Positions 14,239 through 17,447 of a stretch of DNA of 64,000 nt are shown in pieces (within the stretch, counting starts at the first letter, position 1; the number at the start of each line of letters is the position of its first letter). The stretch lies in assembly GCF_057098645.1 (NCBI RefSeq), contig NZ_CM169472.1, one strand, 5' to 3'. The position numbers were made by a program, and so were the translations under genes. The notes beneath the pieces are model-generated. The model was not told the origin of the DNA, ran no database searches, and saw only the letters and a program-made list of their open reading frames with translations.

Positions 14239-14900
14239 ATATCTACGAAAGAATTGATGGCAGCAAATACCGAAATATTTGGGTAGCTGGCGACCTGCAC
14301 GGATGCTACACGAACCTGATGAACAAACTGGATACGATTGGATTCGACACCAAAAAAGACCTGCTCATCTCGGTTGGCGATTTGGTTGATCGCGGTACAG
14401 AGAACGTCGAATGTCTGGAATTAATCACATTCCCCTGGTTCAGAGCTGTGCGTGGAAACCATGAGCAAATGATGATTGATGGCTTATCAGAGCGTGGAAA
14501 CGTTAATCACTGGCTGCTTAATGGCGGTGGCTGGTTCTTTAATCTCGATTACGACAAAGAGACTCTGGCTAAAGTTCTTGCCCATAAAGCAGAAGAACTT
14601 CCGTTAATCATCGAACTGGTGAGCAAAGATAAAAAATATGTCATTTGCCACGCCGATTATCCTTGTGATAAATACGAGTTTGGAAAGCCAGTTGATCATC
14701 AGCAGGTAATCTGGAACCGCGAACGAATCAGCAACTCACAAGACGGGATCGTGAAAGAAATCAAAGGCGCGGACACGTTCATCTTTGGTCATACGCCAGC
14801 AGTGAAACCACTCAAATTTGCCAACCAGATGTATATCGATACTGGCGCAGTGTTCTGCGGAAACCTCACATTGATTCAGGTACAGGGAGAAGGCGCATGA
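14235..14900 (+). CDS. Lambda-type Ser/Thr protein phosphatase (nin-region ORF221), 221 aa
   Basis: Track ORF with the metallophosphatase motifs GDLHG...GDLVDRG...GNHE, matching lambda PPase. Confidence 0.92.
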
Positions 14901-14986
14901 GACTCGAAAGCGTAGCTAAATTTCATTCGCCAAAAAGCCCGATGATGAGCGACTCACTACTGGCCATAGTTTATTGGTTTTCGTAA
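14897..14986 (+). pseudogene. Q: Remnant of lambda-type Q (first ~20 codons, then divergence and stop)
   Basis: [20 protein letters not shown] matches the lambda Q N-terminus, then LLAIVYWFS and a stop; ATG overlaps the phosphatase stop as in lambda. Confidence 0.7.
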
Positions 14987-15039
14987 CTGAGTCATTTTAT
15001 TATTTTATTGCAACTTTTAATCTTTTATAGTGCGAAATA

Positions 15040-15095
15040 AATGGAGCTGGCATTCATTTCGCACTTTATGTTTTTGTTGGACTTATGTTATTTTG
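15040..15095. terminator. Imperfect long hairpin (gtgcgaaat...atttcgcac) with flanking T-rich tract; possible bidirectional terminator
   Basis: Inverted repeat seen by eye between the Q remnant and the 3' end of the outer-membrane protein gene. Confidence 0.35.
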
Positions 15096-15111
15096 ATTGA
15101 ATTCAATTCAG

Positions 15112-16071
15112 TTAAAAAAAGAAGGTGATTGCTCCATTTATAAATGAATAGTCATCCCCTGTCTTGAATTCTGATGTTACTTTATTAAATGCTAGTGTGA
15201 AGGCTACAGGTGCATACCCAATTGTTGCGCCAACTTGATATTCATCAACAGTTTTGTTTAGCGATACTGTTGTTTGTTTCGTCTGTATTGTTTTTCCTTC
15301 GAGAGTATAGTTGCGATTGACATCTCGTCTTTCCATACCTGCAAAAATCTTGTATTTGAATCCGCTTGTATCGGACATATGCATTAAACCACGGGGAGCC
15401 AGCAGACCAAAGCCATTATCCGAATTGAAGGTTTTATCATTACCAATGGCAATGGTTGCGCCATATGCTACATATTGAAATAAGTTTCCAGTAACAGCAG
15501 AAACTTCAGGGTATAATCCAACATTAGCACCTAAAATATCCATACTTGGTGTCATGGATAGCATCCCTTTTACAGTATAACCGTAGCGATTCTCTATTTG
15601 ATCATCCCATGCATGATATTTTTCTGCCCCAATAATCTCATGAGCTTTATTTTGTACTTTCTGACCGCCTGCGTCGGGGCCAACAACACCTATGTCAGTA
15701 CCTAATCGATAGCGAATCCAGTCATTCGCAAGGGAGTTCCATTCAATACCAGTGTGAGTGTATGCACTAAAAGCTCTGTCTCCAGTTACAGCTGTGTTGT
15801 GTCTTTTATTACTGCCTGATGGAGAGTAAATATCTTGCGCAATATGGAGAGATAATTGGCTCGAGTCTGAGATATCGTGGCTATATCCCAGAAATAAGCC
15901 TTGTGAGTAATCATCTCTGTTTTCATGTTTATTGCCATAAATATCATTAAGTATTGGTTGAAACTTCCCTGCATCATCATTTGCTAATGATAATGCAAGG
16001 CTGTTCGCGATAGCTGAACACGTGGTAAATGACAGAGCAATAAAGACGCCAGCGATGACACTTTTTTTCAT
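15112..16071 (-). CDS. Outer-membrane beta-barrel protein, 319 aa; possibly an LpxR-family lipid A 3'-O-deacylase
   Basis: Track ORF with signal peptide MKKSVIAGVFIALSFTTCSAIA, alternating amphipathic strands, C-terminal aromatic residue (…ITFFF); AT-rich. LpxR assignment is from size (319 aa) and fold type only. Confidence 0.8.
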   Translation of the reverse strand: MKKSVIAGVFIALSFTTCSAIANSLALSLANDDAGKFQPILNDIYGNKHENRDDYSQGLFLGYSHDISDSSQLSLHIAQDIYSPSGSNKRHNTAVTGDRAFSAYTHTGIEWNSLANDWIRYRLGTDIGVVGPDAGGQKVQNKAHEIIGAEKYHAWDDQIENRYGYTVKGMLSMTPSMDILGANVGLYPEVSAVTGNLFQYVAYGATIAIGNDKTFNSDNGFGLLAPRGLMHMSDTSGFKYKIFAGMERRDVNRNYTLEGKTIQTKQTTVSLNKTVDEYQVGATIGYAPVAFTLAFNKVTSEFKTGDDYSFINGAITFFF

Positions 16072-16546
16072 ATGTTATTGTCTTCCTTTTTTTTGAATGG
16101 TGCGCGTATTTTACATACATGAGTTTGTAATACAAGGTGCGTAATCAATATGATGTTTTATAATTGCGTGAGACAATTGATTTATTCGTTTTTTATTGCG
16201 GTTTTATTATCTTTTAATGTAATGGTGTTTTTATTAAGTGTGTTTGCGTGGTGTTTTATGTTTTTTATAATTTTTTATTTTATTAAATTTAAATGCATTA
16301 GTAATGGCTATTCTATATAGCAATATAAGAACTGTTACAAAAAAAGGGGGGGCAATTACAGGTAGTTATGGATGATGAGTGAAACAGATATTGGAGAACC
16401 GGGGAATGAATGATGTCTGAGTCTTATATATCAGAACTCCTTCGCTGTCGCTGGGGGCTCCTGTGCTTATGTCGTTTCCCCGATTCGGTTTTGAACGATT
16501 ACCGAATGTTGAAGAATTATGCCAAAATATAGAAAGGATTTACTGC

Positions 16547-17236
16547 ATGAATACCCAATATTTACAGTATGTTCGTGAGCAACTTATGGCAGCTACTGCT
16601 GACTTGAACGGAGCAACGAAAGGCCAGCTCGAAGCCTGGCAGGAGCATGCACAATTTGATACTGGTACATACAAACGAAAGAAGCCGCGCATTCTGGATG
16701 TGGTAACTGGCAAGATGATTACGCTGGATAATACGCCGACTTCCGGTAAGCAGTCGTACGCAAAAGGTTCATCCATTGCTTTGGTCAGCCCGGTTGAATT
16801 CTCAACCTCTTCATGGCGCCGCGCGGTTTTGTCTCTCGATGAACATCAGAAAGCATGGTTGCTTTGGTGTTACAGCGAAAGCGTTCGATGGGGGCATCAG
16901 GTCACCATAACGCAATGGGCATGGAGCGAGTTTAAAGATTTGTTAAGTAACAGAAAAATTGCAGGTAAGACACTGGATCGCCTGAAGACGTTAATCTGGC
17001 TGGCTGCACAGGATGTGAAGAGCGAACTTGCAGGGCGTGAGGCCTATGAATACCAGACACTGGCATCATTGGTGGGAGTGACAACAAAAAACTGGTCCGA
17101 GACATTTACTGAACGCTGGGTTGCAATGAAGCACATTTTTCTACAGCTTGATAGTGATGCTTTATTGCTTGTGACGAGAACACGTTCAAAACAAAAGGCA
17201 GCATTTTTACAGCAAAATATTGCAAAACTGGATTAA
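16547..17236 (+). CDS. Q: Putative late-gene antiterminator Q (non-lambda type), ~229 aa
   Basis: Track ORF 16463-17236 trimmed to MNTQYLQYVREQ... (AGGA Shine-Dalgarno 9 nt upstream); sits between the nin region and the lysis genes, followed at once by a strong terminator; replaces the truncated lambda Q. Confidence 0.6.
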   Translation: MNTQYLQYVREQLMAATADLNGATKGQLEAWQEHAQFDTGTYKRKKPRILDVVTGKMITLDNTPTSGKQSYAKGSSIALVSPVEFSTSSWRRAVLSLDEHQKAWLLWCYSESVRWGHQVTITQWAWSEFKDLLSNRKIAGKTLDRLKTLIWLAAQDVKSELAGREAYEYQTLASLVGVTTKNWSETFTERWVAMKHIFLQLDSDALLLVTRTRSKQKAAFLQQNIAKLD

Positions 17237-17281
17237 AAGCCATATACTTCATGCAAATTTGGTATGTTGTAAAAAATGTAT

Positions 17282-17308
17282 AAACCCGCTGCCGAGTGGG
17301 TTTTTTTT
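17282..17308 (+). terminator. Intrinsic terminator downstream of Q (tR'-like)
   Basis: Hairpin aacccgct-gccg-agtgggtt followed by TTTTTTTT. Confidence 0.6.
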
Positions 17309-17447
17309 ATGCCCTGAGTTGTACTTGTACGGTAAACATGCTGGCTGCTATGTAATAGAGTTTTTTTAGCCTGTAACCTCTTGACGGCATTGAATTGCTT
17401 TTGTTATGAGTTGTAAGCCAATGTTATCATCTTGTATTGGGGTGGTT

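Follow-up and report, generated by a model that had tools for sequence, protein, structure and literature searches.

The question raised by this locus is how the late-gene control of a lambdoid prophage came to be divided between a fragment of one antiterminator gene and a complete copy of another, with a surface-protein gene on the opposite strand between the two. The locus lies in a stretch of 64,000 nucleotides (NCBI RefSeq assembly GCF_057098645.1, contig NZ_CM169472.1; hereafter the window), where an initial annotation had described, at positions 14897 to 17310, a truncated lambda Q gene, an inverted outer-membrane-protein moron and a different Q. We are highly confident that a lambdoid prophage of the phage 434 type, integrated at the lambda attachment site, has its late-control junction here, and that the ancestral lambda Q was broken at this point and replaced by an lpxR moron and a phage-82-type block. 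The anatomy, breakpoints, family memberships and conserved catalytic residues described below come from the present analysis; the gene, the enzyme family, its regulation in enterohaemorrhagic Escherichia coli (EHEC) and the phage annotation are already on record, and the initial finding adds nothing beyond them.

In a megablast comparison with phage genomes, positions 14200 to 17700 of the window are 99.6% identical to the DNA of phage 434 (OL657226.1), and the early half of the prophage (538-20720) is 99.8% identical to this phage; for the structural genes of the window prophage no 434-like match was found. Across the region, the phage 434 record annotates a serine-threonine phosphatase (NinI), a lambda-Q N-terminal fragment, an 'outer membrane beta-barrel lipid A deacylase LpxR', a YlcG-like protein, a 'transcriptional activator/anti-terminator, Q82-like' and a terminator. 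Judging from the host genes on either side and from close relatives, the prophage occupies the lambda attachment site beside ybhC in genomes of the Shiga toxin-producing E. coli (STEC) type. The complete block of 2.5 kb is present in 619 of the 5,426 complete E. coli genomes, including those of serotypes O157:H7, O145, O121:H19, O111:H8 and O103:H2, in which the Prokaryotic Genome Annotation Pipeline (PGAP) labels its genes 'lipid A deacylase LpxR family protein', 'YlcG family protein' and 'bacteriophage antitermination protein Q', and in most of these records an additional incomplete 'antitermination protein'. Given this recurrence and the presence of the same arrangement in phage 434, it is no chance pattern, and an assembly artefact is ruled out by the 619 complete genomes together with the independently sequenced phage. 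The block from the Q fragment through lpxR and ylcG to the second Q occurs in at least two nin contexts, namely downstream of ninI or of ninH, which indicates that it has spread by homologous recombination through the 5' end of the lambda-type Q gene. None of the papers searched names phage 434 together with LpxR, and the genome announcement of the phage (Feiss et al. 2022, PMC9119081) goes no further than 'morons ... encoding bacterial virulence factors'.

On the left, the lambda-type flank is formed by the serine/threonine phosphatase gene ninI (14235-14900, + strand), whose product shows 94.6% amino acid identity to lambda NinI, is annotated as NinI in phage 434, and scores below the curated cut-offs of the NCBIfam phosphatase models (best score 274 bits versus 326). 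The start codon of the Q fragment at 14897 overlaps the ninI stop codon as ATGA, exactly as in lambda. This fragment (14897-14986, + strand) has 29 codons, and its first 20 residues are those of lambda Q before the sequence diverges and stops, as the initial annotation had stated. Homology to lambda (96%) spans ninI and ends at 14966, about 70 to 77 nucleotides into Q, and the first 77 nucleotides compared across this junction are identical to lambda. A three-way alignment of the window, a diverged allele (E. coli contig L011, see below) and lambda extends the lambda-derived sequence to about 14973, which places the junction at approximately 14966-14973; according to the same alignment, the divergence of the fragment from codon 21 onward is partly due to point mutation. 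The lambda-type Q domain (Pfam PF03589) is absent from the fragment, as only 20 of 207 residues match and translation stops after 29 codons. The open reading frame (ORF) is thus a fragment and not a member of the lambda-type Q family, in agreement with its labels 'antiterminator-like protein, N-terminal fragment' in phage 434 and 'antitermination protein, incomplete' in PGAP, and we regard it as a pseudogene remnant.

It could be argued that this remnant is instead a functional small gene, or a device for translational coupling to ninI. It does retain an open frame and the ATGA overlap, and it is kept both in the 619 genomes and in an allele of the block that is just 84% identical in DNA. However, it has lost any Q domain together with all but 20 of the 207 Q residues, and its non-lambda tail varies by allele, reading LLAIVYWFS in the window and PQPTVYCFL in L011, which argues against selection on the peptide. 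Its retention can also be explained by linkage to lpxR and by a role in recombination, in which it offers a homology patch to other nin regions. We therefore consider a function of the peptide or of its translation extremely improbable and treat the fragment as a dead remnant of Q.

The extent of the replacement is revealed by phage 2B8, which belongs to the genus of phage 434. It shares with the window both flanks, 14200-14964 and 17283-17700, and carries an intact lambda-type Q of 207 residues between them, so that the replaced block reaches from about 14970 to 17280. Two parts make it up: the lpxR cassette (about 14970-16400) and, directly attached, an 82-type block that comprises the end of rusA, ylcG, Q and the late promoter pR'. 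Homology to phage 82 (89.5%) begins at 16401, in the last three rusA codons, and extends to the Q stop codon, and homology to 82-type prophages continues to about 17269, that is position +15 of the late transcript. The lpxR cassette is absent from the corresponding position in phage 2B8, lambda and phage 82. Since 2B8 homology begins at the terminator tR', this terminator belongs to the retained downstream module and not to the 82-type module. The 82-type promoter block gives way to the downstream module at 17269-17282, about +15 of the late transcript and directly past the pause element. These breakpoints bear out the view that recombination swapped late-gene control and brought in a surface-protein gene. 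On our reading, the ancestral lambda-type Q was broken after about codon 24, and two joined pieces took the place of the remainder of Q and of the late promoter belonging to it. One is an AT-rich moron with lpxR on the opposite strand and the other a phage-82-type piece with the last rusA codons, ylcG, Q82 and pR' to about +14, while tR' and the late genes downstream were retained. A 12-nucleotide direct repeat, GATGATGAG(C/T)GA, found at 14941 and 16371 near both cassette ends, was considered as a target-site duplication and rejected because about three such pairs are expected by chance within 1.75 kb and the copies are out of register with the junctions.

The gene within the cassette (15112-16071, - strand) encodes a protein of 319 residues with a signal peptide. 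The initial annotation had considered it an outer-membrane beta-barrel protein of the LpxR type and had called this assignment weak; the identification as LpxR proved right, and the support for it is strong. The protein matches Pfam PF09982 (1.7e-39) over its full length, residues 10-318 aligning with positions 2-320 of the 323-position model, and its sole relative in PDB is the Salmonella LpxR structure 3FID (E-value 3.6e-153; 220 of 295 residues or 74.6% identical). Residues 24-319 align without large gaps to residues 2-296 of the 3FID chain, and an N-terminal segment of 22 residues, MKKSVIAGVFIALSFTTCSAIA, precedes the mature start. The complete catalytic and Ca2+-binding set is present (N31, D32, S56, Q140, H144 and E150, corresponding to N9, D10, S34, Q118, H122 and E128 of the mature protein), and D11, K67, K129 and Y130 in mature numbering are conserved as well. 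In an alignment of 13 family members, the columns of N31, D32, S56, K89 (K67 of the mature protein), Q140, H144, E150 and Y152 (Y130) are invariant or nearly so. For the Yersinia enzyme, which naturally has Ser34, the exchanges N9A, D10A, S34A and H122A have each been shown to abolish deacylation (PMC3486919), and the residue pairs 9/31, 10/32, 34/56, 118/140, 122/144 and 128/150 given for EHEC LpxR (PMC6863877) match the window protein. Judging from this conservation, the gene most probably encodes an LpxR lipid A 3'-O-deacylase, and the refuting case named in the initial annotation, a protein devoid of the LpxR active-site residues, does not apply. Neither LpxR nor the second Q has a match in NCBIfam, most likely because no corresponding models exist, which is not counter-evidence to the assignments.

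The LpxR proteins of phage 434 and of STEC O145 strain RM9872 (WP_000750155.1) are both 100% identical to the window LpxR, and the latter accession is also carried by LpxR in O157:H7 records. What can be said about enzyme activity and regulation of lpxR is accordingly taken from the literature on the EHEC protein. In the passages of papers that cite Ogawa 2018, lpxR of EHEC O157 Sakai is described as having 3'-O-deacylase activity (PMC6393859, PMC6863877), as dampening TLR4-dependent responses, and as being activated by Pch and Ler within the regulon of LEE, the locus of enterocyte effacement (both PMC6393859, PMC6863877, PMC7649339, PMC9263587). The EHEC protein has also been proposed as a vaccine antigen, MC001 (PMC6863877).

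The lpxR cassette is a phage moron, as it lies on the opposite strand, deviates in GC content, is flanked by a hairpin and is absent from collinear relatives. The GC content falls from about 50% in the flanks to 25-45% over approximately 14900-16400, in accordance with the AT-rich cassette noted initially, and reaches a minimum of 25-27% at 16100-16400. Between the Q remnant and the 3' end of lpxR, an inverted repeat (15026-15068) with 18-nucleotide arms that are 89% complementary folds at -20.3 kcal/mol on the minus strand (z -5.9) and at -16.4 kcal/mol on the plus strand (z -3.1). This hairpin probably terminates lpxR and, being followed by a U-rich run on the plus strand, could also halt unmodified rightward transcription. 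An extra copy of the 8-bp unit ATTTTATT is located at 14994-15001, the window and STEC genomes having two copies and phage 434 one. Upstream of lpxR, on its strand, a stretch of about 330 bp (16072-16400) with a GC content of 25-35%, a type of DNA subject to silencing by H-NS and to its relief by Ler and Pch, is the presumed promoter and control region for H-NS and for Ler and Pch; regulation by Ler and Pch is assigned to this stretch by analogy with the EHEC gene and may reside there. Phage 434 and a single O103 strain have A6G6 in a length-variable tract at 16340-16346, about 270 nucleotides upstream of lpxR, which reads A6G7 in the others.

The 82-type block opens with the last three rusA codons (16401-16409, + strand), which are followed by a ylcG-family ORF of 40 residues (16410-16532, + strand; NCBIfam match of 48 bits versus a cut-off of 30) that the initial annotation did not mention. 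The second Q (16547-17236, + strand; 229 residues) had been described as a non-lambda Q-like gene, and it has clear homology to an antiterminator family. It matches Pfam PF06323 (2e-91), which is the Q82 family (PMC9388147), and PHROG 304 'anti-termination protein Q-like' (2.2e-108), and it is 88.6% identical (203 of 229 residues) to phage 82 Q and 100% identical to phage 434 Q; no relative of this Q82-type protein was found in PDB. A mechanically called ORF of 257 residues with a GTG start (16463-17236) overlaps ylcG, and we place the real start at the ATG at 16547, as this gives 229 residues, the length of phage 82 Q, and agrees with the start given in the phage 434 record. The gene is predicted to encode a late-gene antiterminator of the Q82 family and is situated immediately upstream of the late promoter, pause element and terminator.

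The promoter scan placed pR' (TTGCAA, 17-nucleotide spacer, TATACT; 17220-17248, + strand) across the Q stop codon, with a predicted transcription start at the A at 17255. Inspection of the sequence downstream revealed a candidate sigma70-dependent pause element, the extended -10-like motif TGgTATGTT, at +6 to +14 (17260-17268, + strand), followed by an A-rich run and by a U at +25, near which the pause is predicted (17279). In an 82-type prophage of strain ST69, the same register puts GCC at +15 to +17 and a U at +25, as described for the phage 82 pR' (PMC5001585); this agreement indicates that the assignment of +1 to 17255 is sound. The strong terminator reported after Q is an intrinsic one with a 9-bp GC-containing stem, a 4-nucleotide loop and eight U residues (17282-17311, + strand; stem-loop 17282-17303), is annotated as a terminator in phage 434, and is here refined to tR', the predicted target of Q antitermination. 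Its stem starts at +28 and the terminated RNA should be about 55 nucleotides long; the whole transcript of 58 nucleotides folds at -15.3 kcal/mol (z -2.7). Rfam at gathering thresholds gave no match within 14897-17310. An identification of the pR'-tR' transcript as STnc240 was rejected, as the match at relaxed thresholds reached 28 bits versus a gathering score of 55, with an E-value of 0.31. In sum, the elements of the initial annotation are all found at the positions it gave, and it needs only refinement, in that the terminator is tR' and the right-hand block begins with the last three rusA codons and ylcG. The arrangement as a whole had been annotated and published before.

From the gene order and the EHEC literature we infer the following scheme, in which the position of the lpxR promoter, the pause and antisense read-through of the cassette are predictions. 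In a lysogen, lpxR would be transcribed leftward as an independent unit from the AT-rich upstream region, with Pch and Ler activating its expression, presumably against silencing by H-NS, as reported for the identical EHEC protein. LpxR would then be exported to the outer membrane, where its Ca2+-dependent site of His122, Asn9, Asp10 and Ser34 would strip lipid A of its 3'-acyloxyacyl group and thereby lower TLR4 stimulation. Upon induction, N-modified polymerase from pR would have to cross the Q remnant, the hairpin at 15026-15068 and antisense lpxR to reach ylcG and Q82. The Q82 protein would load on polymerase paused near +25 of pR' and carry it through tR' into the late operon.

Several points weigh against parts of this scheme. 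The promoter scan located neither a promoter for lpxR nor an internal promoter for Q, with 7 promoter-like sites found and 8.1 expected by chance, and the LEE and pch status of the host is not visible from the window. Salmonella LpxR is latent under standard growth conditions. D31 and Q35 are present in the window enzyme and in most family members but not in Salmonella LpxR, and D31 makes Yersinia LpxR latent at 21 °C towards lipid A modified with aminoarabinose (PMC3486919). As this residue is shared, it is reasonable to suppose that the activity of the window LpxR may be conditional, by analogy with the Yersinia enzyme. A specifically Yersinia-like pocket was considered and rejected, because D31 and Q35 are common in the family at large and the Yersinia enzyme is, overall, only 69% identical. 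At pR', the window has GTA at +15 to +17 and not the GCC of phage 82, where GCC supports the pause and changes at these positions shorten it (PMC5001585); the predicted pause may thus be weaker or shifted. Both this exchange and the location of the tR' stem only 3 nucleotides beyond the predicted pause site follow from the junction at about +15. Finally, IS3 elements have inserted into the prophage and its esterase gene is frameshifted, so that its late pathway may no longer matter.

Diverged alleles of lpxR, drawn from E. coli contigs L011/L012 and L016 and from metagenome contigs L013-L015, bear on the question of whom the gene serves. Among 50,697 phage records, LpxR is encoded only by 434 and 434B. 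One allele, 85% identical in protein (L011/L012), keeps the lambda-Q remnant and the 3' flank, differs in its promoter region, and has cdtABC and an insertion sequence (IS) as neighbours. Another, 80% identical, adjoins an AraC-like gene and an IS3 fragment. A third, 70% identical (L016, an E. coli :H19 contig), belongs to a prophage whose antiterminator is of the Q21 type; it has a TfpB-like gene on one side and a DUF1737 esterase gene on the other and, like the window gene, runs against late transcription. This recurrence in other prophage and mobile contexts, and the presence of an identical LpxR in the laboratory phage 434, which came from sewage and is unrelated to EHEC disease, would be compatible with a benefit to the phage rather than to host virulence, in that an altered surface or vesicle release might lower the adsorption of competitor phages, or that of progeny to lysed-cell debris; passages of PMC4958258 link lipid A deacylation to vesicle formation in Salmonella. 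However, the lpxR strand opposes all phage transcription and expression during lytic growth is not expected, PADLOC gave no match, and the EHEC publications, in the passages referring to Ogawa 2018, place lpxR in the LEE regulon and associate it with reduced TLR4 signalling (PMC6393859, PMC6863877). We thus regard a benefit primarily to the phage as very unlikely and retain the reading of lpxR as a virulence moron. The three diverged alleles (window, 85% and 70%) lend support to the speculative idea of a recurrent, orientation-constrained capture, in which the late-control region of lambdoid prophages would repeatedly have taken up lpxR as cargo, always against phage transcription, and the arrangement could then be functional. 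We consider this improbable; if true, convergent transcription would set Ler/Pch-driven lipid A deacylation against read-through from pR to Q and hence against late-gene expression.

The surroundings of the locus contain a number of further features. The first genes after tR', in the position occupied by stx in Stx phages, encode two membrane proteins (17406-18164 and 18250-18408, both + strand). The former product has 252 residues and belongs to PHROG 1521 (function unknown), with a homologue in L016 that matches Pfam TfpB; the latter is a DUF3927/TciB-like protein of 52 residues (PHROG 1470). PADLOC gave no match for either of the two. At 18419-18623 (+ strand), a structured RNA resembling the prophage small RNA (sRNA) STnc100 (RF02076) scores 41.4 bits (E-value 9e-07), short of the gathering score of 47; a strong terminator closes it, just upstream of the esterase gene. 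A 2026 preprint (10.64898/2026.05.13.724894) links the PasD/STnc100 group to lpxR and Q genes, and the position of this RNA fits. The esterase gene itself (18707-20556, + strand), of the SASA family and NanS-p-like, is split into two overlapping ORFs by a deletion of one nucleotide (a missing G at about 19304) compared to the intact 1851-nucleotide gene of phage 434, and probably represents either a pseudogene or an error of sequencing. A pair of identical frameshift pseudoknots of the IS3 family (ALIL, 120 bits each) is located at 10434-10550 (-) and 21715-21831 (+); the two IS3 copies bracket the segment with the replication and nin genes, lpxR and Q in inverted orientation and represent a sign of prophage decay and a possible inversion substrate. 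Rfam matches at gathering score comprise the sRNA isrC (25745-25867, -; 150 bits), the lambda cIII thermoregulator (6180-6238, -; 88 bits) and a molybdenum-cofactor riboswitch (51858-52002, +; 103 bits) that marks the host chromosome beyond the prophage.

The region opens no new question. It illustrates how a gene for lipid A modification, and thus for virulence, can travel on a lambdoid phage, fused into the point at which a late-gene regulator was broken and swapped, with the Q remnant as a homology patch that lets the lpxR module recombine into other nin regions. With an identical lpxR module in a classical phage, 434, and in EHEC prophages, it is a useful textbook case of mosaic phage evolution.

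The region compares with known systems as follows. The Q'-lpxR-ylcG-Q82 segment of phage 434 (OL657226.1, 39655-42059) has the same gene order and junctions, and its LpxR, YlcG-like and Q proteins are all 100% identical to those of the window; the window differs by the extra ATTTTATT unit and by a few homopolymer and point differences in the AT-rich region, and its element is an integrated, IS-disrupted prophage with non-434-like structural genes. To the lpxR prophages of EHEC and enteropathogenic E. coli (WP_000750155.1) there is no substantive difference, as the protein and the flanking block are identical in O157:H7, O145, O121, O111 and O103 genomes and only the upstream nin context (ninI or ninH) varies. 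Salmonella Typhimurium LpxR (3FID), whose gene we take to be chromosomal, also has 319 residues, and its 12-stranded barrel template is covered end to end. Both enzymes share N9, D10, K67, Q118, H122, E128 and Y130, whereas S34, D31 and Q35 of the window protein correspond to T34, G31 and A35 in Salmonella, which is the family outlier at the positions of D31 and Q35.

Compared to rus-orf45-Q of phage 82 (X92588.1), DNA identity is 89.5% from the last rus codons to the Q stop codon and Q protein identity is 88.6%, and the -35 and -10 hexamers and pause element (+6 to +14) of pR' stand in the same register, as seen via the ST69 82-type prophage. The homology ends at about +15, where the window has GTA instead of GCC, and its terminator stems from another module. 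Parallels in arrangement are other lambdoid outer-membrane morons, namely nmpC beside the Q gene of DLP12 and 434B, and bor and lom of lambda, each of them a surface-protein gene with its own transcription that is directed against that of the phage, close to the late-control or lysis region, and missing in close relatives. In contrast to these morons, which encode a porin or a serum-resistance lipoprotein and are located downstream, the cargo in the window is a lipid A enzyme that is situated upstream of Q, inside a broken Q gene.

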